Positions 2,048 through 33,322 are shown, numbered from the stretch's first letter. The stretch: DNA of 34,076 nt from Candidatus Jordarchaeia archaeon (GCA_018383835.1 JAHAWR010000003.1:1-34076); one strand, 5' to 3'. The notes: a model not told the origin generated them from the sequence alone. Numbers and translations are program-made.

Positions 2048-3643
2048 ATGGTGGCCTCAACTTGCTTCTTGTTGGTTGATGCAACTGGAGCCGGTAGTGG
2101 GGTAAGAAGTCTTGCAAGGGACGTAATAGGAAGTGGAGCGCGCGCCATAGCCGGCGTCTTAGAGAAGATGGGTGGAAGCGTCAGAATAATGGTTCCCGAG
2201 GTCTTCTTTGAAGCTAGGTCTGAGCTCGCAAAGTTTGATGTTTTGATGTGTGGCGGAATGAGCATGGACATACCTGTGATGACAAAAATCGCGAGGATAT
2301 GGAAGCGCTGGAATGGCGGCGTATGCATAGCTGGCGGTCCAGCATCTCTTGAGGCTGAGAAACTTCTCAGGGGAGGATACGATTTGGTACTGGTTGGTGA
2401 GGCTGAGGATACCGTGGCAGAATTACTTGAGAAAGGATTATCTGACGGTTGTCTCCCAAACGAGGAGGAACTAGAGAGAATACCCGGGGTCAGCTTCACC
2501 TCCAAGACCTCGGGTTTCCACTGTTCTAGTGTAAGGCGGACAGCTGGAAATTGGGAGCCATCGGTTGAACGCATCAAGGACTATCCCCTCCATAAGGTCG
2601 CTAGGGTTTACGTTTGGTGTGTCAGAGGATGCTCGAACTTTTACAGAACCAGGATCCCGCTACCAGATGGAAGAAAATGCTTCGAGTGTGGACGGTGCAC
2701 CGGCGGATCGTTAAGGGACAGGCTTACGTGCCCGGCCAATATACCTCCCGGGTGCGGATATTGCTCCGTCCCTAGCGTGTATGGGCCTCCGAGAAGCAGA
2801 CAGGTAGAAAGTATCTTAAGCGAGGTTGAAGGCCTCTTGGAGCATGGTGTGAGGAGGATCTACCTGGGAGCAAGTTGCTTCTTAGACTTTCATAGAGAGA
2901 AGAAGGCTGGCGGCGGGCCTTTAACTGATCCACGCGAGCCTGAGGCAAACTACGACCGCATAGACGAGCTGCTCTCGAACTTAAAAGACTTAGCTGGGAG
3001 AGAAGCATACGTGAGCGTCGAGAACGCTAAGCCATGCCTGTTCACGAGGGACGCTGCCTCTATCATCTCGGAATACCTCCCTAACTCAACGATACACTTT
3101 GGCGGGGAGACGGGCGACGCGAAGCATTCCTCCTCCCTAGGCCGTCCTTCGACTCCGAGCGAGGTCATAGCGGCGGTGAAATCGGCTGTTGAGGAGAGGC
3201 TTCGCCCTTACGTCTACTTCATCCACGGCCTCCCAGGGCAGACTCTTAAGACCGCCCACGAAACAGCCAGAATGATGCGTGACGTAGCGAGACTGGGAGC
3301 AGAAAAAATAACTGTTTACAGGTTTAAACCCCTCCCCATGTCGGCCTTCGAAGGGTTCAAAGAGGCACCCTCCGCAACAAGAAGTAAGGCTGGAGGGATT
3401 ATAGTCCGGGAAGCAATAAAGATAAATAAAGCCTTGAAAAAGAAGCTGATTGGCAAGGTGGTCGACGCCGTCATCGCTGAGCATGGAAGGGGGCGCTTTA
3501 AGGGTAAACTTGTGGGCTACCCGTTACGGGAGGGGCCGACTATAATCCTTTCAGGTACCGCGCCAATAGGGAGCGTTGTCAAGGCGCGGATTACGAACGT
3601 CTTGGGGGACAAGCTCACAGAGGGAGTCATATTTCGTGGATGA
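2048..3643 (+). CDS. Radical SAM protein with an N-terminal B12-binding-like (Rossmann) domain; substrate unknown
   Basis: 531-aa ORF. The N-terminus (DVLMCGGMS...GGVCIAGGP...DLVLVGEAE) resembles the cobalamin-binding domain of class B radical SAM enzymes. A Cys-rich core follows: WCVRGCSNF...CFECGRC...CPANIPPGCGYCSV. The rest resembles a radical SAM TIM-barrel region (RRIYLGAS..., ENAKP..., HFGGETG). Confidence 0.6.
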   Translation: MVASTCFLLVDATGAGSGVRSLARDVIGSGARAIAGVLEKMGGSVRIMVPEVFFEARSELAKFDVLMCGGMSMDIPVMTKIARIWKRWNGGVCIAGGPASLEAEKLLRGGYDLVLVGEAEDTVAELLEKGLSDGCLPNEEELERIPGVSFTSKTSGFHCSSVRRTAGNWEPSVERIKDYPLHKVARVYVWCVRGCSNFYRTRIPLPDGRKCFECGRCTGGSLRDRLTCPANIPPGCGYCSVPSVYGPPRSRQVESILSEVEGLLEHGVRRIYLGASCFLDFHREKKAGGGPLTDPREPEANYDRIDELLSNLKDLAGREAYVSVENAKPCLFTRDAASIISEYLPNSTIHFGGETGDAKHSSSLGRPSTPSEVIAAVKSAVEERLRPYVYFIHGLPGQTLKTAHETARMMRDVARLGAEKITVYRFKPLPMSAFEGFKEAPSATRSKAGGIIVREAIKINKALKKKLIGKVVDAVIAEHGRGRFKGKLVGYPLREGPTIILSGTAPIGSVVKARITNVLGDKLTEGVIFRG

Positions 3644-3812
3644 TTGAGCCGTAATCCTCTAAAAAGGAATTGCCCACCTAAGGTTGCCATAGATCATGGG
3701 ATCCTGAAGGTGGCTTTATTAAGGAGGTCGTGGTGTAAGTGCTGAAAGTTAACGAGTAAGGTTTAAATTTAGGAGGAGAAGAATAAAGTTGACTGATACT
3801 GGATGGGATACC

Positions 3813-3953
3813 ATGCCTTACATTTGTGGGAAATGTGGACTGGAGTTAAGAGAAGAGGAGCTAAGCGGCATTCAGGGAGTTAGGTGCAGGTGTGGCTCGC
3901 GAATACTCTACAAAGCTAGGCCTCCGGTCACCAAGAAGGTTTTAGCTAGGTAA
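3813..3953 (+). CDS. rpoP: DNA-directed RNA polymerase subunit P (Rpo12/RPABC4), 46 aa
   Basis: Small ORF below the track cutoff: MPYICGKCGLELREEELSGIQGVRCRCGSRILYKARPPVTKKVLAR. It has the CxxC...CxC zinc ribbon and the C-terminal GSRILYKxRP signature typical of archaeal RpoP. Confidence 0.8.
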   Translation: MPYICGKCGLELREEELSGIQGVRCRCGSRILYKARPPVTKKVLAR

Positions 3954-4035
3954 TTCTTTCTTTCCTTACCGAGAACCTTAAGTTTTTATTTTCATGGGTG
4001 TGTCTCTTTCTCTATCTGATGGTGGGTGAGCTTAC

Positions 4036-5586
4036 TTGGGGCGCGTAGAGAAAGAATCTGAGGGTAAAAGCTTCTTCGAGAAGGTCTGGACCCTGGTGCT
4101 TCACAGGGGCTTCATCATACCAACGGCAGAGATCTACGGCGGGATAGCGGGCATTTATGATTTCGGCCCCCTAGGGACTCTTCTAGCTAAGAAGCTAGTT
4201 GACCTTTGGCGAAGGTTCTTCGTAATTGGGGAGACGAACTTTCCGGTTTACGAAATAAACGGGTCAACCATACTCCCATATGAAGTTCTGGTCGCCTCCG
4301 GCCACGTTGACTCGTTTGTTGACCCGATAGTCACCTGCCTGAAGTGTAAGGCGAGGATGAGGGCAGACCACTTAGTTGAGGAGGCGTTGGAAATTAGGGT
4401 TGAGGGAGCAACCGTGGAGGAGCTCACCCGGATTATACGTGAAAATGGGTTGCGTTGCCCCAACTGTGGAGGCGATCTCTCAGAAGTCTCCCTCTTCAAC
4501 CTAATGTTTAAAACGGAAGTTGGCCCACTCGGCGGCAAGACGGCCTTCCTGAGGCCTGAGACCGCCCAAGTGATATTCATTGATTTTAAAAAAGTTTTCC
4601 AAGTTATGAGGGGGAAACTGCCCTTCGGGATCGCTCAAATAGGTAAAGCCTACAGGAATGAGATATCTCCTAGGCAAGGCCTGATCCGTCTACGTGAGTT
4701 CACCCAAATGGAGATTGAGGTCTTCATAAATCCAAAGGAGGTCAACAACCACCCTGGAATTGAAGAAGTTGCAGATTCCAAGTTTAGGATTCTTATGAGG
4801 GAAAACCAGCTCAAAGGAGGGGGAGCCGTCGAAGTCACCGTTAGGGAAGCTGTTGAAAAAGGCATAGTCCCAAACGCTTACATGGCTTATTATCTTTCAA
4901 AGGAGACCGAGTTCTTTGAGAGGATAGGAATCCCGCGGAGCAAGTTCTACTTCAGGCACATGATGCCTGAAGAAACCCCATTCTACTCCGGAGGAAACTT
5001 TGATCTCGAAGTTGAGCTGAGCATCGGAGTTAAAGAAGTGGTTGGCAACGCCTATAGAACGGACTACGACCTCCGAAGTCACATGAAACACAGCGGCGAA
5101 GACCTCTCAGTCGATGTGGACGGAGAAAAGGTGGTTCCAGAAGTTGTTGAGCCATCCTTCGGCGTTGAAAGAATAATTTACTGCATACTGGAGCACTGCT
5201 ATAGAGAGGACGACGGGAGAGGTTGGAGCTGGTTCCAGTTCCCGCCGGAGATAGCGCCCGTAACCGCGCTCATCCTCCCATTAATGAAGAAGGAACCCCT
5301 AGTGTCAAAGGCTAAGGAGCTGTTTAAAGCGGCTAGGAGAAGCGGCATCTTTGTTGAGTACGATGACAGGGGATCCATAGGGAAGAGGTATGCGAGAGCA
5401 GACGAGATAGGTGTTCCTGTCTGCGTGACTGTAGATTACCAGACCATTAACGATGGCACAGTTACTTTACGTAGCAGAGATACGAGAAAACAGGTTCGCG
5501 TCAAAGCCGAGCTCGTCCCAAAACTGCTCCTTGACCTCTCCGAGGGAAGAATGAGTCTCAGCGATTTGGAGGCGCTTCAAGGTTAA
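4036..5586 (+). CDS. glyS: Glycine--tRNA ligase (archaeal/eukaryotic type)
   Basis: 516 aa. Motifs RGFIIPTAEIYGGIAGIYDFGPLG, VASGHVDSFVDP and RADHL, plus class II core motifs (FRNEISPR, REFTQME). The TTG start at 4036 is taken from the track, so the exact start is uncertain. Confidence 0.9.
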   Translation: MGRVEKESEGKSFFEKVWTLVLHRGFIIPTAEIYGGIAGIYDFGPLGTLLAKKLVDLWRRFFVIGETNFPVYEINGSTILPYEVLVASGHVDSFVDPIVTCLKCKARMRADHLVEEALEIRVEGATVEELTRIIRENGLRCPNCGGDLSEVSLFNLMFKTEVGPLGGKTAFLRPETAQVIFIDFKKVFQVMRGKLPFGIAQIGKAYRNEISPRQGLIRLREFTQMEIEVFINPKEVNNHPGIEEVADSKFRILMRENQLKGGGAVEVTVREAVEKGIVPNAYMAYYLSKETEFFERIGIPRSKFYFRHMMPEETPFYSGGNFDLEVELSIGVKEVVGNAYRTDYDLRSHMKHSGEDLSVDVDGEKVVPEVVEPSFGVERIIYCILEHCYREDDGRGWSWFQFPPEIAPVTALILPLMKKEPLVSKAKELFKAARRSGIFVEYDDRGSIGKRYARADEIGVPVCVTVDYQTINDGTVTLRSRDTRKQVRVKAELVPKLLLDLSEGRMSLSDLEALQG

Positions 5587-6893
5587 AGCGTGACCGTTTC
5601 TCCGTTGCAAGGAGCGTAGGCTTCGGCCTTTCTAATAGACTCCAACCTCTCGCAGAAGTTGAGTGTTTTCTTCTCCTCACCGTGAACGCAAAAAACCCTT
5701 TCTAGGTTCCTGAACGCGCTGAGGAATCGCAGTAGCCCAGGGTAATCAGCGTGGGCGCTAAACTCGAAGAAGCCAACTTTTGCCTCAATCCTGACTCTTT
5801 CCCCGTCAAGCTCGAGCTCGCGCACCCCATCATAAAGCATACGGCCCCGCGTTCCGGGAACTTGATACCCTGTTAAGCATATCAGGTTCCTCGGGTCACC
5901 TCCGAAATTCTTTAAGTAATAAATTATGGGGCCCCCCTCCAGCATGCCGGAAGTGCTGATTATAACCATGGGCTCTTTCATCTTTGCTAGGTCTTTTCTC
6001 TCTTCCACGTCAATGAACACGTCGGACTCCAATGGGTTCTGCTTGGTGTAGCGTATCTGTTTCTTGATGGGGTCGCTTAAGTGCTCCCAGTACATGCGGT
6101 ATATGATGTTAACCTTGCGTATCATCCCATCTATAAAAACTGGTGCTTCAGGTATGACTCCACTTCTTATGTACGCTTCAAGGCACAGCATGACTTCCTG
6201 TGCCCGCCCTACAGCGAATACTGGTACCAGGACTACGCCTCCTTCTTTCAATGTTTCCGCGACCGCTAATGCGAAGTCCCTCTCCGTTTTTTGAAGACTT
6301 TGATGTTGGTCGGAGGGCGAGGAGTACGTTGACTCTATGATAACGGTGTCTGCATCACTCATTGAAAGGTCAACCATAGTCTGCGTTCTCGTGTTTCTAG
6401 CGCAAATGTCCCCCGTATAGAGGATGACGTGGTTCTCCACTTTGAGTCGGACCATTGCACTTCCAAGGATGTGTCCCGCCCTAAGGAGAACCGCCTCAAC
6501 TCCTCCTCCAAGATGCATGGGTTGCTTGTACAGCATGTCGACGGCGTGCTTTCTGACGTTCATGACGTCAGCGAACGTGTATGGTGCCGCTTCTTTCTTG
6601 AGCTTCAAGTAGTCGATGTTAAGTGTTTCCGACAGGTCTTGGGTTGGAGGCGTCCCTATCATGGGTGTACGGTATTTCGACACTACATGAGGGGCGTAGC
6701 CTGCGTGGTCTAAGTGTGCATGAGTGAGTAAGAGAACATCAGGTGGGTCAGGTGGTTCAAGCGGAAAAGTGTCTTCGTTTACTCCTATGGCTACCCCTGC
6801 GTCCAGCATTATGTTCCTGCCACCAGATTTAACAAGCACGCAGGAGCGTCCAACCTGCCTAGCTCCACCCAGAAACATGACTTCTATTGTCAA
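5583..6893 (-). CDS. Metallo-beta-lactamase / beta-CASP family RNA-processing nuclease (aCPSF2-like, no KH domains)
   Basis: 436 aa. HAHLDHAG (HxHxDH), AGHILGS, YTGD, beta-CASP motif A (IIESTY), motif B (SAHAD) and motif C (VHGE). Confidence 0.8.
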   Translation of the reverse strand: MTIEVMFLGGARQVGRSCVLVKSGGRNIMLDAGVAIGVNEDTFPLEPPDPPDVLLLTHAHLDHAGYAPHVVSKYRTPMIGTPPTQDLSETLNIDYLKLKKEAAPYTFADVMNVRKHAVDMLYKQPMHLGGGVEAVLLRAGHILGSAMVRLKVENHVILYTGDICARNTRTQTMVDLSMSDADTVIIESTYSSPSDQHQSLQKTERDFALAVAETLKEGGVVLVPVFAVGRAQEVMLCLEAYIRSGVIPEAPVFIDGMIRKVNIIYRMYWEHLSDPIKKQIRYTKQNPLESDVFIDVEERKDLAKMKEPMVIISTSGMLEGGPIIYYLKNFGGDPRNLICLTGYQVPGTRGRMLYDGVRELELDGERVRIEAKVGFFEFSAHADYPGLLRFLSAFRNLERVFCVHGEEKKTLNFCERLESIRKAEAYAPCNGETVTL

Positions 6894-7825: not shown

Positions 7826-8049
7826 TTAATCACCCTCCAATTAGAGCTTACATCGTGTTGAGAAAGTGGTTTTATTTAACTGTTTTTAGACATCACATTC
7901 GACTAAGCGATTGATAAAAATTTCTTTAGGCGCATTTCCTCCTTTCATTCTTAAAGGATGGAAAGACAATAACTTTTTAAGATGCTGCAGTCATGAAGCT
8001 GATTAATGGAGGAGTTTTTACCGGAAAGAATACCGCGTGAGGGAATGCC

Positions 8050-8424
8050 TTGACAAAGATCGATGAACTTTTGGAGCTGCTCCGAAACATGGAAGCTGCA
8101 ACACCTGGGATAGAGGCCAGTGCGGTAGTCAGCACGGAAGGGCTCCCCATAGCCTCTGCTATGCCTCAAGAGGTCGACGACGCTGTTGTCGCTGCTATGG
8201 CGTCGGCCATACTCAGTGTTTCGGAGAAAGTTAGCAATGAGCTAGTCAGAGGGAGGTTACAACAGGTTTTAGTGCAAGGAGACCAAGGATATGTGATCAT
8301 CAAGGGTGCCGGGGAGAGCGCTTTATTAACAGTCCTCGCGAGGAATGATGCAAACCTAGGGCTCATAATCATGGTCCTGAAGCGTGTGTCTGAAGAAGTT
8401 AAAAGGCTGCTAGAAGAAGAATAG
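8050..8424 (+). CDS. Roadblock/LC7 (MglB-like) domain protein
   Basis: 124 aa with the pattern alpha-beta-beta-alpha-beta-beta-beta-alpha: ...GIEASAVVSTEGLPIASAM...AAMASAILSVSEKV...LQQVLVQGDQGYVIIKGAG...LLTVLARNDANLGLI. TTG start taken from the track; the next in-frame ATG is near 8089. Confidence 0.75.
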   Translation: MTKIDELLELLRNMEAATPGIEASAVVSTEGLPIASAMPQEVDDAVVAAMASAILSVSEKVSNELVRGRLQQVLVQGDQGYVIIKGAGESALLTVLARNDANLGLIIMVLKRVSEEVKRLLEEE

Positions 8425-8486
8425 GTGAGTGCTTCGAAGTTAGCTTTGGCTCAGACCGCCTGTCGCTCCTCATCCCCGTCAGTGAT

Positions 8487-9149
8487 TTATACTTCTTCAT
8501 CGCCAGAGCATACTTTTAGTCCTTTAAAGATAAAGTTTTCACAGTTTTTCATGAATGAAGCAACAATTCTTCTTATCTTCATCTGTACATCCTCTACGGG
8601 AGGGGTGGCGTCGATCACCAGATACCCCTTCTCTTTAGCTCTCTCGAGATAGATTTTCCTAACTCTTTCAAGGAAGCTCTCCTCCTCGAACTTGTCCTTA
8701 AACTTGCTTCCCATCCTCTCCATGGCGGTCTGCGCGTCAACGTCAAGCAGAATTGTTAGGTCTGCGTTTAGCGCCCACTTGTTTATGTCTTCAATCCACT
8801 CCACATCCACGCCCTCAGCGGCTTGGTAGCAAATGGACGACTCAACGTAGCGGTCTGAGACGATGACTTCCCCAGCCTCGATCCTTGGCTTTAACTCACT
8901 CTCTGCGTGCTCCAGCCTGTCTGCTGCAAACAAGAGAGCTAAAGTGGCGGGATGAAAAACTCTCCTTTGCAGCTGCTTGCGTATTAAGGAACCTATCTCT
9001 CCGCTCGTGGGCTCTTTTGTCAGCGAGACAATGTACCCCTCCTCCCTCAGCCATTCTGTGAGCAACTTGGCATGGGTGGTTTTCCCAGCGCCGTCTATTC
9101 CTTCCAAGACGATTAATACTCCACGCTTCAGCCTCTTCAACTCATCCAC
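8487..9149 (-). CDS. tmk: Thymidylate (dTMP) kinase
   Basis: 220 aa. P-loop VLEGIDGAGKTT, then DRY-type motif VSDRYVESS and a lid region. Confidence 0.9.
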   Translation of the reverse strand: MDELKRLKRGVLIVLEGIDGAGKTTHAKLLTEWLREEGYIVSLTKEPTSGEIGSLIRKQLQRRVFHPATLALLFAADRLEHAESELKPRIEAGEVIVSDRYVESSICYQAAEGVDVEWIEDINKWALNADLTILLDVDAQTAMERMGSKFKDKFEEESFLERVRKIYLERAKEKGYLVIDATPPVEDVQMKIRRIVASFMKNCENFIFKGLKVCSGDEEV

Positions 9150-9232
9150 CTTAAGGGAATTAACCTAGATAATAGATAAGTTTTTTTACTTTCAGGCCCC
9201 CTCAGCAGATCGCCCCTCCATTAGGGGAAAGG

Positions 9233-10006
9233 GTGAAGCCGGTGCCGTTCAACTTAGAGGTTAACAAGTTCAACGTGTTAAAAGTTAAAGATGAATCATT
9301 AGAATTAGAGAGCATTTTAAATGACGTGAAGGGCGCCGTCTGCGTTCAAGGGATGCCTGGAATAGCGAATGTGGGAAAGGCCGTAGTTGAATTCTTAATC
9401 GAGTATAATAATGCGAAGAGAGTGTTTCAGATCCACTTCTCCGACTTTCCCTCGCATGTTTCCGTTGACGATGCCGGGCACGTGAACGCATTGAAGAGCG
9501 AGGTCTACTTTTACCGGGATGAAAGGGCTGGAGGCGACTTTTTCCTCCTGACGGGCGACGCGCAGCCAACCTCGAACATAGGTGTAAACGTCCTTTCAAA
9601 GTATATAGCCAATTTACTGCACGAGTTAAACGTTAAGCTAGTGGTATCATTGGGGGCTATGCCCACCGAGAAGTTAAGTGCCAAGCCACGGGTATTCGCG
9701 GCCGTTACAAGCATCGAACTACTCAAGAAATATGGCAATCTGCCAGGGGTGGAGGTTCTCAGGGAGGGCGTCGTGATTGGGATGAACGGCTTAGTTCCAT
9801 GCATCGCCAGCAGCCTCTACGGCATCAACGGCTTAATTCTGCTCTCAGAAACTCTTGGCATCTTTGAAAAGGATGCTAGGGCGTCTTATACCCTAGCCAA
9901 GATCCTGCGGGACAGTTTTAAGCTAAACATTAACCTTGAAGAGTTCAAGAGTAAGATTGGCCTCACAAACGGTCAGGACGGTGAGCATCTCGGGTACTTA
10001 AGCTAA
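9233..10006 (+). CDS. PAC2 (proteasome assembly chaperone 2) family protein
   Basis: 257 aa. VQGMPGIANVGKAVVEFLI, FLLTGDAQP, IGMNGLVP and LLSETLG...DARAS match my recollection of the PF09754 pattern. GTG start. Confidence 0.6.
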   Translation: MKPVPFNLEVNKFNVLKVKDESLELESILNDVKGAVCVQGMPGIANVGKAVVEFLIEYNNAKRVFQIHFSDFPSHVSVDDAGHVNALKSEVYFYRDERAGGDFFLLTGDAQPTSNIGVNVLSKYIANLLHELNVKLVVSLGAMPTEKLSAKPRVFAAVTSIELLKKYGNLPGVEVLREGVVIGMNGLVPCIASSLYGINGLILLSETLGIFEKDARASYTLAKILRDSFKLNINLEEFKSKIGLTNGQDGEHLGYLS

Positions 10007-20531: not shown

Positions 20532-22043
20532 TTAGTCTTTGGCATCACCCATTGCTTGCGGTATGTAAGTTATCACGTCAGTTGCCGTTATGTGGTATCC
20601 TTTCCGCTGAACCGCCAGGTCTCCTGCTTTACCGTTTATGAATGCTGCTGCTGTCGCTGCTCTGAACGGGTCTTTCCCCCATGAGAGGATAGCAGCGCAA
20701 CACCCGGTGAGTACGTCCCCCGTCCCCCCAACTGTCATTCCGGGGTTTCCCGTAATGTTCACCTTTACCTTTTCACCATTCGATATAATATCCCAGTGTG
20801 CTTTAAGCAATATGGTTGCTCCAAGTCGCCTACTCCATTCCCTAACAATATCAGTTTTTTCCTTTAGTGGCTTGCCGAGGAGGTTTTCCCCTGTTAAGTT
20901 AAGAAATTCACCTTGATGTGGCGTCAAAACCATTATCTCGCTTATGAGAGCCTCTGCCTTCCTCGGGAGAACCTTAAGCGCGTCTGCATCAATAACAGTT
21001 GGAACCTTCTTCTTTCTCGCAAGCTTTAAGGTTTCCGCTACAGCATCTACCGTTTCATTCTCCAGTCCGAGTCCGGGTCCTATCGCCAGCGCTGATGCCC
21101 TGTCCATGAGGTCATCGATCTTATCGACTGCTTCTAAGCAATAAACTTCTCCCGGGAGGGGGGTCACAATGAGGTTCGGGGAGTATGCGCGTATGGCGTC
21201 GGCGACGCTAGATGGCGCAGCTACAACTACTATGTCTACTCCCGTTGTTAAAGCCGCCAGCGCAGTTAGGGCTGGGGCTCCCGAGTAGTTTTTTCCTCCC
21301 CCGATGACCAGCACTCGTCCATGCTCCCCCTTGTGCGCCTCAAACCTACGTTTTATCTTGGCTGCTTCTAGGTCTCCGGGGCCCGCTATGAATTCGGCTT
21401 CTGGGGGGATCCCTATAGGGTAGACTTCAAGCTCGCCGGTGAAGGGGGAATTCGGCAGAGCTGGCTTAGCCGAGTGGAGACACACGGTTAGATCCGCCTT
21501 AACGGCTCTACCTCCTACCTCCCCTGTATCTGGGTTTAATCCCGAGGGTACATCCACGGAGACCTTAAATCCCTTAATCTTGTTGATCAGTTCTATTGCT
21601 GAGGCTAGAGGCTCTCTTACTTCCCCTCTTACTCCCGTTCCGAGAAGCGCGTCCACCACGAGTTCCACGTTGCTGAGTTCTTCTTCAATCCCTTCAAAAT
21701 CTCTCGAGTCACTTATCACCCTCTTTTCAATGGTGAACATCATCTTGACCACATTCCAGTTGCGTCTAGCCTCCTCGGTTCTGATGTCTTTTTCGCCTCC
21801 GACGAGGATCACTGTTACCTTTGCTCCAAAAGATGCGAGGTGTCTTGCGGCGACGAGCCCATCTCCCCCATTATCGCCCAGGCCGCAGAAGACGACGACC
21901 CTTTTTCCATCAACATTCATTCTCTTGAAGATCGCGTCAGCAACGCTTCTTCCGGCGTTCTCCATTAGGAGAAGGCGGGGGACTCCTAGGAACTCGGCGT
22001 TCAAATCTACTATTCGCATTTCCTCACTAGTCATAATTTTCAA
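20532..22043 (-). CDS. nnr: Bifunctional NAD(P)H-hydrate repair enzyme (epimerase plus ADP-dependent dehydratase; YjeF N- and C-terminal domains)
   Basis: 503 aa. N-terminal LMENAG...CGLGDNGGDG, C-terminal carbohydrate-kinase-like HKGEHGRVLVIGG...GNPGMTVGGTGDVLTG. Confidence 0.9.
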   Translation of the reverse strand: MKIMTSEEMRIVDLNAEFLGVPRLLLMENAGRSVADAIFKRMNVDGKRVVVFCGLGDNGGDGLVAARHLASFGAKVTVILVGGEKDIRTEEARRNWNVVKMMFTIEKRVISDSRDFEGIEEELSNVELVVDALLGTGVRGEVREPLASAIELINKIKGFKVSVDVPSGLNPDTGEVGGRAVKADLTVCLHSAKPALPNSPFTGELEVYPIGIPPEAEFIAGPGDLEAAKIKRRFEAHKGEHGRVLVIGGGKNYSGAPALTALAALTTGVDIVVVAAPSSVADAIRAYSPNLIVTPLPGEVYCLEAVDKIDDLMDRASALAIGPGLGLENETVDAVAETLKLARKKKVPTVIDADALKVLPRKAEALISEIMVLTPHQGEFLNLTGENLLGKPLKEKTDIVREWSRRLGATILLKAHWDIISNGEKVKVNITGNPGMTVGGTGDVLTGCCAAILSWGKDPFRAATAAAFINGKAGDLAVQRKGYHITATDVITYIPQAMGDAKD

Positions 22044-24919: not shown

Positions 24920-25567
24920 ATGGAGGCAACTCTCGTAATTCTGAAGCCTGATGCAACAGTAAGAAGCTTCGTCGGGGCATACACCACTAAAGTGATACTA
25001 GATCAGGGCTACAGGGTAACAGCCTTCAAATGGGTCCAAGTAACGGGCGAGCTCGCAGAGAAACATTACGAAGAGCACGCGGGGAAACCCTTCTTTAACT
25101 GGCTTACAACATACATCAAAGCAGCCCCGGTCGTAGCAATGAAGGTGGAAGGGGAAAATGTGATACAAGGGATAAGGCGCATGCTGGGGGCAACCATGGC
25201 CCAAAAGGCGGAGCCGGAAACCATTAGAGGGAAATACGGCATATGGGGTGGCGTAAACGTGGCACACGCCTCAGACTCTCCTGAAACTGCAAAAAGGGAG
25301 CTCGCCCTCTGGTTAACCAAAGCAGGGCTAAAAGAAAATGAAAACGGACAGGAAAAGGCTGAAGAATATGCTAAGTCTCGCCAAGCCACAAAGGACTATA
25401 CCAAAAAGCTCAGGGAAACATGCAAGGCCCTTTCAGAAAGAAGGGTCAGCATTGAACATGCACGAGAAGCGATAAAGCAACTCCTAACAGAAGAAAACCC
25501 AAACGCAAAACCCCACCACATATCTAACTTAACTGAAGCAATAATCCAGAATTTCCTGCTACCCTAG
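24920..25567 (+). CDS. ndk: Nucleoside diphosphate kinase with a C-terminal extension of about 70 aa
   Basis: TLVILKPDA, HYEEHAGKPFF, GATMAQKAEPETIRGKYG, NVAHASDS (catalytic His). At 215 aa it is longer than the usual 140-160 aa. Confidence 0.8.
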   Translation: MEATLVILKPDATVRSFVGAYTTKVILDQGYRVTAFKWVQVTGELAEKHYEEHAGKPFFNWLTTYIKAAPVVAMKVEGENVIQGIRRMLGATMAQKAEPETIRGKYGIWGGVNVAHASDSPETAKRELALWLTKAGLKENENGQEKAEEYAKSRQATKDYTKKLRETCKALSERRVSIEHAREAIKQLLTEENPNAKPHHISNLTEAIIQNFLLP

Positions 25568-25819: not shown

Positions 25820-26356
25820 CTACTGCTGAGCACCCTTCTTAACTATGATCATTCTCGCCAGATCGGCGAAGGATTCGTTAACGTTCATGCCGGTCTTAGC
25901 ACTGGTTTCAAAGTAGAGCAGGTTCTGCTTTATGGCGAACTCGAGTGCGTCTTCAAGAGGGACAGCTCGAGGCAGGTCACGCTTATTCCCGATCAGAATC
26001 AGCGGTACATCGCCGCAGTGCGTTCTAACTTCCTCAATCCAGAATGGCAGCCTCTTAAAGCTTTCCATATTTGTTACATCGTAAACGCAGAGTCCGCCTA
26101 CAGCCCCACGATAGTATAAGGGTCTAATGTGGCTGAACCTCTCCTGCCCTGACTGATCCCAAACTTGAAACTTGACCGTTTTCATCCCCAAGGGAGTATC
26201 AACTTCGATATTTTTCACAGCAAAATCAACGCCCACCGTCATCTTATAACTTTCCTGGAATATGCCCTCACTGAAACGCCTTGTTATGGATGTCTTCCCA
26301 ACCCCTCCATCGCCCACTATTACAACCTTAAAGAGGAACGTGTAGCCCGTTGCCAT
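25820..26356 (-). CDS. Rab/Ras-like small GTPase (standalone, 178 aa)
   Basis: G1 GDGGVGKT, G2 T in MTVGVDF, G3 WDQSGQE, G4 NKRD, G5 ETSAK. Rab-family-like motifs VGVDF, YYRGA and VYDVT are present. There is no C-terminal Cys prenylation motif. Confidence 0.85.
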   Translation of the reverse strand: MATGYTFLFKVVIVGDGGVGKTSITRRFSEGIFQESYKMTVGVDFAVKNIEVDTPLGMKTVKFQVWDQSGQERFSHIRPLYYRGAVGGLCVYDVTNMESFKRLPFWIEEVRTHCGDVPLILIGNKRDLPRAVPLEDALEFAIKQNLLYFETSAKTGMNVNESFADLARMIIVKKGAQQ

Positions 26357-28019: not shown

Positions 28020-29201
28020 ATGAGTCGTAGAGTTGCTATTATTGGTTACGGGTGCTTAAAGATTGGTAAGTATGGTTCTGAAGTGTCCGAAAACGAGTTG
28101 TCCATTAGGGCTATAAAACTCGCGCTGGAGGATGCCGGGATTTCTAAGGAGGATGTTAACGGGCTCGTTACGACTCCAAACTATCTCCTGACGTTAGGCC
28201 TCCAGTTATCAGTGGTCTCGGAGTACTTGAGGATTTCACCTAGAGTTGCGGCTGAAATTGCTTGTGGCGGAATTGCCGGAGGCCTAGCGCTTAAGCATGC
28301 AATGAATGAAATAGCGCTTGGGCACGCGGATATTGTGGTTTGTTACGGCTCCGTTAAGGAATCCATACGCTTTAAGAACATCGCGCTGGTTGAGCCTGGA
28401 ATGGGCATTGAAATCTATGACCCTACAACTCAGCCCTATGCTGTCGCGGGCGTTATCTGGGCTTATGCATGTTCGGGTAGAAGGTACATGTACGAGTATG
28501 GTGCGACCGAGGAGCACTTCGCAGCGGCTTGTGTTAGAAATAGGAACAACGCTAGGCATAACCCATGGGCAGCGTTCACAACGCCAATCACTATTGAAGA
28601 CGTGCTGAAATCCCCCATTCTATGTTCGCCACTGAAGCTTTTGGACTGCTCGGCTGCAAGGGATGGTGCCGCCGCAGTAGTTTTAGCTTCAGAAAAGAAA
28701 GCTAGGAAAATAACTGATACGCCTATTTACATTGTAGGCGTCGGGGAGCACCACGATAACTCAAGCTTCATACCGACGGACAGGTGCGATAAGCCCATAA
28801 CTTCCTTCGTCGCCGCTAGGGAAGCCGCCCAGCGGGCATTAAAAATGGCAAAGGTAAGCGTTGACGATATCGATGTCGCTGAGCTTTACGCTCCATTCAG
28901 CCCCCAAGAGCTCATGCTTCCTGAAGATATTGGGTGGTTTAAGAAGGGTGAGATGGTCAAAGCCATAATGGATGGCTCAACCGAAATAGGCGGAAAAATC
29001 CCTATAAATACCGATGGAGGCCTCCTTTCCAGAGGGCATCCAGCCATGGTTACTCCAATATATGAAACGATAAGCATTGTGAGGCAGCTTAGAGGTGAAT
29101 CCGGAAAAGTTCAAGTTGACGGAGCTGAGATTGGATTAATACACTGTGAAGGCGGTATGCTCAACAACTGTATAGTCTTCATCTTCAGGAGAGGTGATTA
29201 A
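28020..29201 (+). CDS. Thiolase-family protein (archaeal acetyl-CoA C-acetyltransferase / SCP2-thiolase-like)
   Basis: 393 aa. EIACGGIAGG (nucleophile Cys region), DCSAARDGAAAVVLAS, C-terminal GLIHCEGGM. Confidence 0.8.
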   Translation: MSRRVAIIGYGCLKIGKYGSEVSENELSIRAIKLALEDAGISKEDVNGLVTTPNYLLTLGLQLSVVSEYLRISPRVAAEIACGGIAGGLALKHAMNEIALGHADIVVCYGSVKESIRFKNIALVEPGMGIEIYDPTTQPYAVAGVIWAYACSGRRYMYEYGATEEHFAAACVRNRNNARHNPWAAFTTPITIEDVLKSPILCSPLKLLDCSAARDGAAAVVLASEKKARKITDTPIYIVGVGEHHDNSSFIPTDRCDKPITSFVAAREAAQRALKMAKVSVDDIDVAELYAPFSPQELMLPEDIGWFKKGEMVKAIMDGSTEIGGKIPINTDGGLLSRGHPAMVTPIYETISIVRQLRGESGKVQVDGAEIGLIHCEGGMLNNCIVFIFRRGD

Positions 29202-29637
29202 GCTGTCATCACAGCCGGAAATAATCTACCTTCAACCAAAAAATCACGAGCCAACTTTAAAGTTTTGGGAGGGACTAAAGAACAGAAAGCTCCTCGCGCC
29301 CAGATGCGGCGACTGCGGCGAAATATTCTTTCCGCCTAGAGGCTTCTGCCCGAAATGCCTTTCTGAAAACATTGAGTGGGTTGAGCTCAGCGGCAAGGGC
29401 AAGCTTCACAGTTGGACTGAAATCCATTATTTAACCCCCAAGCCATACATACTTGGCGTTATAGACTTGGCTGAAGGCATAGGTAGAATGATTTCTAGGA
29501 TTGAAGCCGAACATAAAGAATTAAAGATAGATATGCCTATGAAAGTAGACTTCATCGACGTCTCAGATAAGCTAACTCTATTCATCTGGAGACCAGACAA
29601 AGTAGACTCAAAACATCAAAAGAGTGAATCCTTCTAA
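29194..29637 (+). CDS. DUF35 OB-fold / zinc-ribbon protein (thiolase-associated scaffold)
   Basis: APRCGDCGEIFFPPRGFCPKCLS followed by an OB-fold-like region (GKLHSWTEIH...). The GTG start overlaps the thiolase stop by 8 nt. Confidence 0.8.
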   Translation: MIKLSSQPEIIYLQPKNHEPTLKFWEGLKNRKLLAPRCGDCGEIFFPPRGFCPKCLSENIEWVELSGKGKLHSWTEIHYLTPKPYILGVIDLAEGIGRMISRIEAEHKELKIDMPMKVDFIDVSDKLTLFIWRPDKVDSKHQKSESF

Positions 29638-29924: not shown

Positions 29925-31700
29925 TTAGACACGTATTTTCTGGTTTTGTGTCTGGAGTTGCTGCTTGGTCTGCGAGAGTATGTCAAATATAGTTAATGCT
30001 ATTACCTTGGCAGCTGTTAGTAGCTCTTTTATCGATATCTTCTCGTTTGGCCTGTGTTTTTGTTCATCCTCTCCCGGCCCGAACGAGACCGCCGGGATCC
30101 CGTTTAACATGCATACTTTAGTCATCATAGCTTCATTTTCGCCCACTAGTTCCATCTTTTCTCCTGTCACTTCCTCCACGTTCTTCTTCAACATTTGCAC
30201 TAAGAATTGGTCCTGGTTGATCTCTGTCGGCGGCTCTGACAGAATTACCTCGAGTGACATCTCGACCCCCTTAACTTCCTCCTCCGTTTCCCTTATGATT
30301 TCCGTTAGACGGCTGATTATTTCCTCCTCCGTTATAGCTGGGGTGTACCTTATGTCTATTGTCGCCTCTGCCCTGCCAGGTACCATGTTTATTCCCGTAC
30401 CCCCCTGGATACTGCCTATGTTCATTGTTACCTCCCCCATAAGGGGATGAGGCGGTACGTCAAACTTGATCTCGGAGACTTTTCCTAGGAGCTTTATTAG
30501 CGCCTGCACGGCGTTTGCCCCCTCGTGTGGCTTAGACGCGTGGACGGTGCGTCCCCTGCAAACCACTTTAAGCCAGAGTATTCCTCTTTCTGCAACGCAT
30601 ATGTTCTTGCTTCTCGTATTCCCTCCAATTATTGCGTAGTCCACATTAATTTTTCTCTCTTTTAAGAGGTACTTCATCCCGAGCTCTCCGGCCGCCTCCC
30701 CGTCTGCCGCAGCTACGAGCAGCACTGTGCCGCCAAGCTGCAAGTTTAGCTTTTTGATGGCGTAAAGGGCAAGCACCATTGATGTTAAAGGACCCTTAGC
30801 GTCTGCGCTCCCTCTTCCTATCACGTAGCCCTCTTTTACTGTCGCTCTAAAGGGAGGGTAAATCCAGCCGTCCCCCGGGGCGACAACGTCGAGATGGGCT
30901 GCCAGCATCAGTCTTGGCTCTCCGTCCCCTAACCTACCCACGACATTTGTCCGCCCCTCGACTTTCTCGTATATTTCCGTTTGGGCTCCTATCCTGTAGA
31001 GCTCTCCCAGCACTATTTCGGCTACGCCTCGCTCCCATCCCGGGGGGTTAACCGACTGGGCGGATATAAGATCTCTCAGCAAGTTGATCGCGTAGTCCTC
31101 GCTTTCATCTATGACTTCTAAAAGTCGCTTTCTGAGCTCCGGCGTCACTTTTAATGGAACCGCCTTTGCCTCCTCCCTGATCCCAAGGATAAGTCTGGCG
31201 GCAGCTATGAAAGCCTCATCAACCTTAAACCTTGTTTTCGCACTGGTCTCAAAATAGAGCGCACCCAGTTTCCTCGCTAATTGTTCTGCTTCATGCCTTG
31301 GAACCCGACGCTCGTCAACCAAGTCGTGTTTGTTCCCTACCAACACTATTGGTATTTTGCCACATATGCTCGTGACTTCATCGTGCCACTTCTCAACGTT
31401 CTCGAAACTTCTCATGTTCGTCAGGTCAAAGACTATTACTCCGCCCTTCGCCTCAGTGTAGAAAAACGAGCGCAGGTGGGCGAAGCTTGGCTGCCCCCCC
31501 AAGTCCCAAAGCTGCAACGTGACAAGTTTGCCGTCCAAATCCACCTTATAAGAGGCGAAATCAGCCCCCAGGGTTGGGCGGTAATCGGTTGGGAAGCGGT
31601 TTTCCGTGAGAGTTAAAATAAGGCTTGTTTTACCTACACCACCGTCCCCAATAACGACAATCTTGAAAACATACTCTTCCTGCAATTTTTCTCTCCTCAC
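29925..31700 (-). CDS. Fusion protein: N-terminal Rab/Ras-like small GTPase plus C-terminal M20 (ArgE/DapE/CPG2-type) peptidase-like domain
   Basis: A single uninterrupted 591-aa ORF. GTPase motifs: GDGGVGKT, T in PTLGADF, WDLGGQ, NKHD, ETSAK. M20 motifs: AAHLDVV, GRGSADAKG, VHASKPHEGANAV, FGPGEDEQKHRPNE. Expected DEE reads DGE and expected GEPT reads GGNT. Confidence 0.85.
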   Translation of the reverse strand: MRREKLQEEYVFKIVVIGDGGVGKTSLILTLTENRFPTDYRPTLGADFASYKVDLDGKLVTLQLWDLGGQPSFAHLRSFFYTEAKGGVIVFDLTNMRSFENVEKWHDEVTSICGKIPIVLVGNKHDLVDERRVPRHEAEQLARKLGALYFETSAKTRFKVDEAFIAAARLILGIREEAKAVPLKVTPELRKRLLEVIDESEDYAINLLRDLISAQSVNPPGWERGVAEIVLGELYRIGAQTEIYEKVEGRTNVVGRLGDGEPRLMLAAHLDVVAPGDGWIYPPFRATVKEGYVIGRGSADAKGPLTSMVLALYAIKKLNLQLGGTVLLVAAADGEAAGELGMKYLLKERKINVDYAIIGGNTRSKNICVAERGILWLKVVCRGRTVHASKPHEGANAVQALIKLLGKVSEIKFDVPPHPLMGEVTMNIGSIQGGTGINMVPGRAEATIDIRYTPAITEEEIISRLTEIIRETEEEVKGVEMSLEVILSEPPTEINQDQFLVQMLKKNVEEVTGEKMELVGENEAMMTKVCMLNGIPAVSFGPGEDEQKHRPNEKISIKELLTAAKVIALTIFDILSQTKQQLQTQNQKIRV

Positions 31701-31882: not shown

Positions 31883-32329
31883 CTAGAGATATATTCTTAG
31901 GTTGTCGTGCTCCCTGATTTTCCTCCATTTTTTAGAAATCCTAACTAGTTGCAGAGTCTCGAGGTACCCCGCTCTTTCATCAATATCTCTCTCAGTAAGC
32001 CACTTGGTCCTCAGGGATCCCTCCCCGCTTCTACCTTTCACCTTCCCCCTGAATGCGAAGACTACGGGTGCCGCCGGGTGGTCTACCTGCTGGTAGATGC
32101 GCACTATTCCCTGCACTTCCACGTCGTATCCTGTTTCCTCTCTCACCTCACGCCTTGCGGCTTCAACAAGATTCTCTCCCACTTTAACCTTTCCTCCCGG
32201 AAGCGCCCAGAATCCACTTCTCTCCTCTACAAGAAGGTATTTTCCTTCCTCCTCCACTATGACAACCGCTATCAGGCTCATAGGCTTACACACCTTTATC
32301 CTCTGAAGCATAACATATTTATGGAGCAT
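31883..32329 (-). CDS. NUDIX hydrolase
   Basis: Nudix box GGKVKVGENLVEAARREVREETGY. The track's start at 32461 would overlap the divergent gene and adds an Ala/Pro/Thr-rich tail. In-frame ATGs at 32329, 32311 or 32281 are more plausible. Confidence 0.8.
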   Translation of the reverse strand: MLHKYVMLQRIKVCKPMSLIAVVIVEEEGKYLLVEERSGFWALPGGKVKVGENLVEAARREVREETGYDVEVQGIVRIYQQVDHPAAPVVFAFRGKVKGRSGEGSLRTKWLTERDIDERAGYLETLQLVRISKKWRKIREHDNLRIYL

Positions 32330-32378: not shown

Positions 32379-33322
32379 GTGCTCGAGTTCGACATTGTAG
32401 TGGTTGGAGCGGGGCCCGCCGGGCTCGCGGCTGCAGCCTTCGCAGCTAGAAGGAAGCTCAAAACTCTGGTGCTTGAGGCTGCTCCAACTGCTGGAGGAAA
32501 GCCTGTTCTCCTTTACGCGAGTAAAATTGTCGATGACCTCATGGGTTTTCCCGAGGGAGTAACGGGCCTTGAGATAGGGCGCGCCCTCGAGCGCCACGCC
32601 AAAAAGTTTGGGGCCGAGATTAGGTGTAATTCAAGGGTGGTGGACATCAGCGGTACTGAGGGTGGTTTTTTCATATTGAGGGACGAGAATGGGAGGGAGT
32701 ACCATGCTAAGGCGGTTATCATAGCATTTGGCGTTCAGCCGCTCACCCATGTAGGAGTTGAGGGAGAGGACAGGTTTAGAGGGAGGGGTGTAAGGTATCT
32801 ATTAGAGGATCCCTCAGAAATTAGGGGAAAGAGAGTTGTTGTTGTGGGTGGAGGAGAAACAGCCGTCGAGTCCGCTCTCAGGGCTAGCGAGGTCGCCGCC
32901 TCGGTTGTGCTTGTTCACAGACGTGCCGTCTTGAGAGCAGATGAGTCCACTGTGGACCAGCTGGCAGGTAGAGTCGAGGTTCTCTATGACTCCATTGTTG
33001 AGGAGGTAAGGGGAGGGAAATGGGTGGAGGAGGTTGTGGTGCTAAACCGCAAGACGGGGGAGAGACTCCTGATAAAGCTGACGAGGTCATTTTTTGTGTG
33101 GGGCACAGTCCTGAAACCGACCTGTTGGAACGTTTGGGTGTGCAGCTCTCAGATAAAGGAGAGGTCATAGTAAATAGGAAGCAGGAAACTAATGTTCCCG
33201 GGGTTTTTGCCGCCGGGGACGTGACAGGAGGTGTTATGCGTATTTCGGCAGCCATAGGGGAAGGAGTTGTAGCTGCCCTAGGCGCTTATAACTATATAAA
33301 GAAGCCCTACTGGCGCACTTGA
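32379..33322 (+). pseudogene. Thioredoxin-reductase-like FAD/NAD(P) oxidoreductase lacking the CxxC motif, interrupted by a -1 frame change near 33056-33078
   Basis: N-terminal DIVVVGAGPAGLAAA and VVVVGGGETAVESAL are in frame 0 (stop at 33168-33170). The conserved C-terminus ADEVIFCVGHSPETDLL...GVFAAGDVTGG continues in the frame of ORF 33020-33322. Confidence 0.7.

Follow-up and report, generated by a model that had tools for sequence, protein, structure and literature searches.

A Rab-like GTPase fused to an M20 peptidase-family module with graded erosion of catalytic residues in Jordarchaeia

Introduction

What does a metallopeptidase fold contribute to a protein that begins as a small GTPase, and does it still act as an enzyme? 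The question is raised by one gene on a contig of 34,076 nucleotides from a Candidatus Jordarchaeia archaeon (GCA_018383835.1 JAHAWR010000003.1:1-34076; this whole stretch is referred to as the window), which belongs to a metagenome-assembled genome (MAG) of the Asgard lineage Freyarchaeota/Jordarchaeia. On the minus strand, positions 29925-31700 form a single open reading frame (ORF) of 591 codons with a GTG start, in which a Rab-like GTPase domain is followed by a module of the M20 metallopeptidase family. An initial annotation, made from the sequence alone, had proposed that the M20 module is degenerate and would be a pseudo-enzyme, or a ligand-binding and dimerisation module, rather than a peptidase.

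Here we report that the fusion is genuine, that it is shared by all the Jordarchaeial orthologs collected, that both of its parts are under purifying selection, and that the catalytic residues of the M20 module are lost to different degrees in different clades. We judge it about an even chance that a Rab-like switch is joined here to an M20 module which, in this genome, is catalytically impaired or dead and serves as a scaffold or ligand sensor.

Results

A Rab-like G domain and an M20 module share one reading frame

An ORF scan of the window recovered the uninterrupted 591-codon frame of the annotation. In NCBI the protein (P0001) bears the name 'ArgE/DapE family deacylase [Candidatus Freyarchaeota archaeon]'; its model there is 586 residues long and starts five codons inside the GTG, as in the nearest orthologs. 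Because both P0001 and these orthologs begin at the TTG at position 31685, the true coding sequence is probably 29925-31685 (586 aa). The domains and motifs of the protein are located as follows.

31185..31679, minus strand: Rab-like small GTPase domain, residues 8-172 (Pfam Ras)
31626..31649, minus strand: G1 / P-loop GDGGVGKT, residues 18-25
31557..31577, minus strand: G2 / switch I PTLGADF with Thr43, residues 42-48
31491..31508, minus strand: G3 / switch II WDLGGQ with catalytic Gln70, residues 65-70
31323..31334, minus strand: G4 NKHD, residues 123-126
31236..31250, minus strand: G5 ETSAK, residues 151-155
31143..31184, minus strand: flexible linker, residues 173-186 (~14 residues), with predicted local distance difference test (pLDDT) values below 50 at residues 175-183
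30597..31142, minus strand: M20 catalytic domain, N-terminal part, residues 187-368 (Pfam, NCBIfam, AlphaFold2 (AF2), Foldseek)
30276..30596, minus strand: M20 lid / dimerisation domain, residues 369-475, with H387 (equivalent to H194 of Haemophilus influenzae DapE, HiDapE) and R451 (equivalent to R258)
29973..30275, minus strand: M20 catalytic domain, C-terminal part, residues 476-576, holding H549 (equivalent to H349)
29925-29927, minus strand: stop codon

Of the Pfam families that the annotation had named for checking the fusion, three were found in the protein: Ras (PF00071; residues 13-171, E=4e-52, 176.5 bits versus a cutoff of 21.6), Peptidase_M20 (PF01546; residues 265-571, E=2e-29, 103.2 bits versus 24.6) and M20_dimer (PF07687; residues 369-475, E=2e-23, 82.7 bits versus 21). 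Since both domains score far beyond the curated cutoffs, the two-domain feature is not explicable by chance. Every motif that had been quoted for either domain was found at the residues given for it, including all five G motifs within residues 1 to ~175.

The closest solved relative of the G domain among PDB sequence matches is the Thorarchaeota Rab 7EZB (E=5e-42); next come eukaryotic Rab2 (Rab2B), Rab10, Rab39B, Rab35, Rab8 (Rab8A) and Rab1. Judged by these best matches, the domain is nearer to Rabs than to Ras, Rho, Arf or Ran. The C-terminal cysteine prenylation motif of eukaryotic Rabs is not present in the protein, which ends ...QNQKIRV without a cysteine. A Pfam search of the protein gave no match to a COR domain, and the Roc profile matched only as a generic Ras-like G domain.

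The M20 module scored 267.4 bits with the NCBIfam model for the ArgE/DapE deacylase subfamily (TIGR01910; cutoff 217.6). None of the equivalog models for DapE, ArgE or LysK reached its cutoff in the NCBIfam search of the protein (NF006399, 206.7 versus 381; TIGR01892, 153.7 versus 297.7; NF003367, 116.7 versus 363; TIGR01246, 145.9 versus 361.8), and the DapE subfamily model NF006365 was also below cutoff (212.8 versus 289). The AF2 model of the protein has a mean pLDDT of 83.6 and a predicted template modelling score (pTM) of 0.68; values exceed 90 in the M20 part and are low in switch I, switch II and the linker. The low values at residues 35-47 (switch I) are expected, because the switch region is mobile. 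Foldseek searches with the M20 part returned the DapE structures 7UOI and 5VO3 as best matches, with E ~1e-35 and template modelling (TM) scores of 0.85-0.86 normalised to the target. As annotated, the motifs follow the M20 (ArgE/DapE/CPG2) order from residue ~195 on: AAHLDVV (residues 267-273), GRGSADAKG (295-303), AADGEAAG (331-338), IIGGNT (357-362), VHASKPHEG (386-394) and FGPGEDEQKHRPNE (540-553).

The general base and one metal ligand are replaced by glycine

Active M20 enzymes employ a glutamate (E134 in HiDapE) as general base, together with five metal ligands. The residues of the window protein were mapped by HMMER alignments to HiDapE (3IC1, 5VO3) and by a MAFFT alignment that included HiDapE, with the following result.

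30894..30896, minus strand: H269, equivalent to HiDapE H67, metal ligand, retained
30801..30803, minus strand: D300, equivalent to D100, bridging Asp, retained
30699..30701, minus strand: G334, at the E134 position, general base lost (codon GGG)
30696..30698, minus strand: E335, equivalent to E135, metal ligand, retained
30621..30623, minus strand: G360, at the E163 position, Zn ligand lost (codon GGG)
30054..30056, minus strand: H549, equivalent to H349, metal ligand, retained

Four of the five metal ligands (the equivalents of H67, D100, E135 and H349) are therefore present and the equivalent of E163 is missing, while the lid histidine H387, equivalent to H194, is retained. In DapE, the lid domain and H194 are important for catalysis, and H194 completes the neighbouring active site (PMC4012986). 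The claim that the general base and one of five metal ligands are lost, which had been made from an alignment by eye, is borne out by these alignments. The catalytic DEE pair does read AADGEAAG; its first Glu is gone and its second, the metal ligand E335, is kept. The two Glu-to-Gly changes are no artefact of alignment, as the comparisons with 3IC1 and 5VO3 and the MAFFT alignment with 60 stand-alone M20 proteins agree. An alignment to 7UOI places a gap differently, which was settled by gap-free comparison with orthologs of 89% identity.

The fusion is shared by independent assemblies

Within Jordarchaeia, 23 sequences from independent assemblies were compared and the fusion was uninterrupted in all of them (23/23). 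Nine sequences with at least 68% identity to the window protein form clade A (the window, P0002-P0006, L010-L012), and 14 with ~50% identity form clade B (P0007-P0014, L013-L018). Fourteen full-length proteins at 50-100% identity have the same architecture, and all those with a named source come from Freyarchaeota, Jordarchaeales or related lineages. The fusion is carried by nine GTDB species representatives, seven of them Jordarchaeia/Freyarchaeota, one a 'Thermoproteota archaeon' and one an 'uncultured archaeon', and it is present on a closed 3.58-Mb chromosome (CP147778.1). No stop or frameshift separates the domains in any ortholog, confirming that GTPase and M20 module are truly fused. 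An assembly chimera, or two separate genes, is ruled out by these uninterrupted orthologs, which include closed chromosomes.

More distant relatives were grouped as clade C (P0102, P0249 and P0255, the last labelled Hodarchaeota) and clade D (Odinarchaeial orthologs), such that the family occurs in Jordarchaeia/Freyarchaeia, in Odinarchaeia and in one MAG labelled Hodarchaeota. When 1.84 billion representative proteins were searched with a profile, just two of the best 150 matches, which reach down to ~255 bits, were fused: P0011 and P0102. Clade D was found by a second search with P0102 as query. Ten further matches with several matching stretches were scanned and proved to be tandem Ras proteins or, in one case, M20 with DUF2007.

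The five G motifs are identical or canonical throughout clades A, B and C. WDLGGQ is invariant and GxxxxGKT is present in every sequence of these clades, with a variable fourth residue (GDGNVGKT in P0003, GDGMVGKT in P0102). The G domain has, on its motifs, the appearance of a competent GTP switch. The linker of clade C is longer by ~50 aa.

Several other proteins were considered as members or counterparts. Promethearchaeota Rab-like proteins of similar length (P0036, P0037, P0046) are unrelated, their C-termini consisting of low-complexity sequence and a zinc ribbon. In a Rosetta-stone check, no GTPase neighbour was found for the nearest stand-alone M20 proteins (the P0103/P0250 cluster). In one Hodarchaeota MAG (L019, JAUUVJ010000010.1, positions 3471-5824), a Rab-like GTPase of 187 aa (minus strand) is divergent from a stand-alone M20 protein of 377 aa (plus strand) that looks catalytically intact. 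These two genes lie ~650 bp apart, with a 107-aa Cys-rich ORF between them. Because this is a single case and Asgard genomes hold many GTPase genes, the pairing is probably coincidental; alternatively, it may be an unfused counterpart.

Catalytic residues are lost to different degrees across the family

The state of the active site differs between the clades. All catalytic residues are intact in clade B (14/14 sequences). In clade A, the equivalent of E163 is Gly in 9/9 sequences, at a position that is Asp or Glu in 59/60 of the nearest stand-alone M20 proteins. The substrate loop GGGT is also altered in clade A and reads ENEA in the window, with the change of G324 to Glu fixed in the clade. 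Loss of the general base is confined to this one MAG: the remaining 22 Jordarchaeial sequences read DEE, and all 60 stand-alone relatives have Glu at the E134 position. Codon 334 is GGG in the window versus GAG or GAA in seven other codon-aligned orthologs, a single A-to-G transition.

Fifty columns of the M20 domain are conserved in at least 85% of the 60 nearest stand-alone proteins. None of them is changed in clade B and one is changed in clade A (Lys to Arg, in all or nearly all members), so that clade A retains 49/50, E163G and G324E aside; four are changed in the window and 19 in clade C. At columns invariant among the other Jordarchaeial sequences, the window has two private changes, V299A (beside D300) and E334G, both of which sit in the metal centre. 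Another member of clade A, P0005 (L007, positions 8001-9743), carries 17 private changes at otherwise invariant columns of its M20 module; most of them are in the lid, H194Y and N245G are among them, and just two such changes fall in its G domain. Judged by these substitutions, P0005 is an independent second lineage of active-site erosion within clade A.

In clade C the substitutions D100C, E134G, E135L, E163S, H194E and H349N remove five of the six catalytic or metal residues as well as H194, and the M20 domain is still detected by Pfam. The Odinarchaeial proteins of clade D are 552-581 aa long, are labelled GTP-binding proteins and align over 88-99% of the length of P0102; one of them is encoded on the closed chromosome of Odinarchaeum yellowstonii (CP091871.1). 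A Pfam search of these orthologs found the Ras domain only, with no M20 match. Their C-terminal 360 residues are nevertheless colinear with the whole Jordarchaeial M20 region (hhalign probability 95.8%, E=6.5e-9). A hidden Markov model (HMM) of the Odinarchaeial C-terminus alone scored 48-30 bits with clade B, 44 with clade C, 26-14 with clade A and at most 24 with stand-alone M20 proteins, and it matched no Ras-only protein. By these profile comparisons, the Odinarchaeial C-terminal domain is derived from M20.

Neighbour-joining analysis of the M20 domain gave 31% support to a group of clades A, B and C and 62% to one of clades A and C, with P0103 unstable in its placement. We read the sequences as one orthologous family with a progressive loss of catalysis, in which clade B would be intact, clade A partly eroded, clade C dead and clade D unrecognisable. 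Since clade B retains every catalytic residue, the fusion would have begun with an intact enzyme and not as a pseudo-enzyme. The proposal of a pseudo-enzyme domain is thus upheld in part. It gains strong comparative support from the losses in clade C and from the Odinarchaeial sequences that lie beyond the reach of Pfam, but among the Jordarchaeial sequences a single MAG lacks the general base, clade B is intact and clade A keeps 49/50 conserved columns.

The M20 module is kept by purifying selection

Comparison of the window gene with P0002, at a synonymous divergence (dS) of 0.36, gave ratios of nonsynonymous to synonymous divergence (dN/dS) of 0.09 for the G domain and 0.19 for the M20 module; the ratios rely on this pair alone, as deeper pairs are saturated (dS >1). 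Mean identities for the G domain, M20 module and lid are 84, 73 and 69% within clade A and 85, 83 and 78% within clade B, and between the two clades identity is 62% in the G domain and 48% in the M20 module. The M20 module of clade A is more relaxed than its own G domain and than the M20 module of clade B. Even so, purifying selection clearly acts on it, and the module is no decaying appendage. Across the family, as the sequences present it, the catalytic residues of the M20 module are dispensable while its fold is retained under selection.

Gene neighbourhoods differ between clades

The neighbourhoods of the fusion gene were compared among loci of all four clades. Three features are referred to below.

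31883..32302, minus strand: NUDIX hydrolase gene, 182 nt upstream of the fusion ORF
L017 7742-8173: nikR, an example from clade B
L089 6001-10596 (Odinarchaeum yellowstonii CP091871.1) and L090 4878-10896: co-directional cluster around the degenerate orthologs

Clade A loci have the order TrxR-like (-), NUDIX (+), fusion (+), RpiA, stand-alone Rab-like GTPase, L24e and nucleoside diphosphate kinase, with strands given relative to the fusion. The NUDIX gene, noted upstream on the same strand in the annotation, is indeed there; it is retained at all clade A loci, is conserved in clade A only and gives no functional lead.

The clade B loci are distinguished by a canonical nikR gene 23-29 nt downstream of the fusion in 9/9 cases (L003, L004, L006, L013-L018). 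Its product scores 161 bits with NF002169 (cutoff 111) and the His/His/His/Cys pattern of Ni ligands is visible. At that position nikR is not found in clade A, the clade with the lost metal ligand. From its gene context, the nikR neighbour would suggest that regulation of the intact form is linked to metal.

Clades C and D share the order fusion, Nnr (YjeF_N + Carb_kinase), a gelsolin-repeat protein of ~300 aa, Roadblock/LC7, PGM and a class I aminoacyl-tRNA synthetase. The Nnr gene has a counterpart in Jordarchaeia, where Nnr is encoded a few kb downstream of the fusion (20532-22043 in the window). The cluster in L089 and L090 appears to group genes for eukaryotic signature proteins in a small island, and its gelsolin-repeat and Roadblock/LC7 members would point to GTPase signalling rather than amino-acid biosynthesis. 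At L090, a longin-Arf/Rag-like GTPase gene is divergent from this cluster and upstream of it.

Other features of the window were recorded alongside these. A pair of genes for a thiolase and a ChsH2-type zinc-ribbon/OB (DUF35-like) protein, at 28020-29637 (plus strand), is convergent to the fusion gene. It is inserted at the same position in the window, L007 and L091, and because it lies elsewhere in L001, a local rearrangement within clade A is indicated. The stand-alone Rab-like GTPase of 178 aa (25820-26356, minus strand) is a paralog of the fused G domain. It lies near the gene for a nucleoside diphosphate kinase with a C-terminal extension of ~80 aa (24920-25567, plus strand), an arrangement that is also kept at four further loci of clade A (L001, L002, L007, L091). 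The TrxR-like flavoprotein gene (32388-33313, plus strand) is split over two frames: a tblastn search that used the L001 ortholog put residues 2-240 in frame 3 and 231-310 in frame 2, and the shift falls near 33074-33104. The split gene is either a pseudogene or the product of an assembly indel, and it bears on the trust to be placed in single-base features of the contig.

Discussion

A model for a GTPase with a built-in M20 partner

Taken together, these observations can be accommodated by a model in which the family arose when a GTPase was fused to an active metallo-deacylase, a kind of protein that clade B may still represent. In the clade of the window the Zn1 ligand equivalent to E163 was replaced by Gly, and in this genome the general base became Gly as well, such that catalysis by the M20 module of this protein is most likely lost or severely impaired, although the module is kept by selection. 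Its selected role would then be non-catalytic and would depend on the retained fold, a dimer mediated by the lid, and a substrate-like pocket that keeps R258, H194, N245 and three to four metal ligands. In this capacity the M20 module could be a permanently attached partner for the G domain, acting either to sense ligand or metal or to provide a docking platform, with the open and closed movement of the lid coupled in cis to the GTP/GDP state.

We favour such coupling within one subunit over a G-G dimer of the GAD type (G proteins activated by nucleotide-dependent dimerisation). The annotation had suggested that the GTPase could be regulated by dimerisation or by small-molecule binding. In the dimers of DapE and CPG2 the catalytic domains are at opposite ends, and because of this geometry the N-terminal G domains would be unlikely to touch each other through a lid dimer. 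The neighbours of the fusion in Odinarchaeia and clade C, a gelsolin-repeat protein and Roadblock/LC7, hint at an output toward the cytoskeleton or the machinery of GTPase regulation.

Several observations weigh against this model. G334 hangs on one assembly and one nucleotide (GGG versus GAG), and because the contig carries the frameshifted TrxR-like neighbour, a consensus error or a minor variant at this codon is possible. Clade A otherwise retains nearly every conserved M20 residue. In principle, the Glu introduced by G324E could take over the ligand role of E163, or one metal could be enough for the enzyme, and to judge from its residues a clade A protein could still bind metal and substrate. 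The AF2 model (pTM 0.68) shows no verified interface between the domains. At the far end of the series, the homology of the Odinarchaeial domain rests on profile methods; the multiple sequence alignment used for its AF2 model contained M20 sequences, which makes that evidence partly circular, and the best 50 Foldseek matches listed for the model were all Rabs.

Alternative explanations

Much of the same evidence can be turned toward a protein that is still an active deacylase or peptidase under the control of GTP. Its site would be mononuclear or re-ligated, with E523 (at the G324 position) as the ligand in place of E163; G334 would reflect a rare allele or an error of sequencing or assembly, and the G domain would gate a metabolic hydrolase (for N-acyl-amino-acid, LysW-type or dipeptide substrates) by the level of GTP. 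Clade B, with all catalytic residues and 50/50 conserved columns, speaks for this explanation, and the columns kept in clade A include the positions of H67, D100, E135, H349, H194, R258 and N245. The TIGR01910 score above cutoff, an M20 dN/dS of 0.19 or lower, the fixation of G324E in clade A, and the origin of G334 in one transition in one MAG with a frameshift nearby on its contig are likewise in its favour. It is harder to reconcile with E163G in every member of clade A, at a position acidic in all but one of the stand-alone relatives, or with further active-site losses in two clade A lineages (the window and P0005) and the complete loss tolerated in clades C and D. The M20 module, relative to the G domain, also evolves faster in clade A than in clade B, and the DapE, ArgE and LysK equivalog models are all below cutoff. 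We regard an active enzyme in this genome as unlikely, though as an explanation to be taken seriously. It is far less probable that the window copy is a decaying gene or a low-quality consensus, whose active-site changes are meaningless and whose protein does not function. E134G is private to the MAG, the TrxR-like neighbour is frameshifted, and the protein is known from a single contig, its exact sequence (P0001) not being on record elsewhere in the contig index. Such decay is at odds with an ORF intact across 591 codons, with the low dN/dS of both modules against the closest relative, and with a count of just two private changes at invariant columns, which is typical for the family; E163G, moreover, was inherited from the ancestor of the clade and hence is no error.

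The nikR gene at all nine clade B loci compared raises the further idea that the family acts in metal homeostasis. Controlled by the GTPase, the dinuclear M20 site would sense or handle Ni, Co or Zn, and the protein would be the Ras-type counterpart of the metallochaperones that depend on GTP. The co-regulation with NikR that this would imply in clade B, and the parallel absence of the ligand and of the nikR neighbour in clade A, are consistent with the idea. To our knowledge, though, the known metallochaperone GTPases are of the G3E/SIMIBI class and not of the Ras class to which the fused GTPase belongs. No transporter or metalloenzyme-maturation genes lie nearby in the loci examined, the window's own clade is without nikR, clades C and D are without any metal ligands, and the evidence in favour is one of adjacency. 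We think a role of this kind improbable. As for an assembly chimera or a gene-calling artefact that joined two genes, the general risk attached to any MAG speaks for it, and the fusion in 23 Jordarchaeial sequences, in clade C and in Odinarchaeial genomes, among them the closed chromosomes CP147778.1 and that of Odinarchaeum yellowstonii, makes it next to inconceivable. We thus return to a Rab-like switch with a non-catalytic M20 partner as the explanation that we prefer.

Comparison with known systems

The M20 module resembles M20 proteins of the ArgE/DapE/ACY1/CPG2 type (TIGR01910; 7UOI, 5VO3, 3IC1) in its two-domain fold (TM 0.86), its order of motifs, its score over the subfamily cutoff and its retention of H67, D100, E135, H349, the lid His194 and Arg258. 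It differs from them in having a Rab-like G domain at its N-terminus, Gly at both E134 and E163, and ENEA in place of the GGGT loop. On these residues, two of the features that define an active M20 enzyme are missing from the protein, as is the prenylation tail of eukaryotic Rabs.

The joining of a Ras-superfamily G domain to a dimerising module is reminiscent of ROCO proteins (Roc, COR and effector) and of the Rag GTPases with their C-terminal roadblock domain. Unlike these, the fusion has no COR or roadblock domain and no homology outside the G domain, and the geometry of an M20 dimer would set two G domains far apart. A second analogy may be drawn with Sestrin2, CASTOR1 and SAMTOR, which act upstream of the Rag GTPases and likewise combine the fold of a metabolic enzyme, lost catalysis and a link to small GTPases; those, however, are separate proteins with different folds.

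Among Asgard proteins, the fusion is like other Asgard Rabs, such as the Thorarchaeota Rab 7EZB, in having all G motifs and no C-terminal prenylation cysteines, a motif that other Asgard Rabs also lack (PMC10933270), and unlike them in the attached M20 module of 400 residues. Fusions of Asgard GTPases to roadblock, longin and domains of unknown function were described by Tran et al. in 2024 (PMC10933270), and the text of that paper makes no mention of an M20 or peptidase module fused to an Asgard GTPase. Liu et al. report that Asgard signature proteins often have lineage-specific architectures that include prokaryotic domains and are patchily distributed (bioRxiv 10.1101/2020.10.19.343400). 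The present family fits that pattern by combining a eukaryote-like domain with a 'signature prokaryotic' domain in a patchy phyletic distribution; it differs from the cases given there in that a series from enzyme to pseudoenzyme is visible inside one orthologous family. The searchable text of the preprint does not mention a Rab-M20 combination. No description of the architecture was found in the searchable literature, with subscription-only papers and supplementary tables lying outside it, in agreement with the initial annotation, which had not recognised a described family. Both modules come from well-known families, and their combination is apparently undescribed within that literature.

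Implications for Asgard biology

Current database labels conceal the fusion from either side. Named Jordarchaeial proteins go under 'ArgE/DapE family deacylase' or, in at least one case from clade B, under the acetylornithine deacetylase / succinyl-diaminopimelate desuccinylase family, and the GTPase is left unmentioned. For the Odinarchaeial proteins the label is only 'GTP-binding protein' or 'Rab family GTPase', and here the M20-derived domain goes unmentioned. Either kind of label could lead automated reconstructions of metabolism astray; with the former, the fusion could be miscounted as an enzyme of arginine or lysine biosynthesis.

A wider reading, which we put forward as speculation and think rather unlikely, is that this is an old, Asgard-wide family in which a Rab-like switch acquired an M20 pocket turned from a deacylase into a sensor of metabolites or metal, a prokaryotic forerunner of nutrient signalling by pseudoenzymes. 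If this were so, the ligands sensed might be, for example, N-acyl amino acids or dipeptides, and the logic would be that of eukaryotes, in which pseudoenzymes derived from enzymes keep small GTPases informed of nutrient status.

Of all known organisms, Asgard archaea are those most closely related to eukaryotes, and the partners and outputs of their many small GTPases are almost entirely obscure. In this family a partner is covalently attached and is thereby identified without interaction screens. The family also provides a natural series of M20 modules that would run from intact (clade B) through partly eroded (clade A) and dead (clade C) to unrecognisable (Odinarchaeia), with canonical G motifs in the tabulated clades A, B and C. 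It opens the questions of how an enzyme may become a pseudoenzyme while attached to a GTPase, and of what a Rab-like protein may do in a cell without endomembranes.

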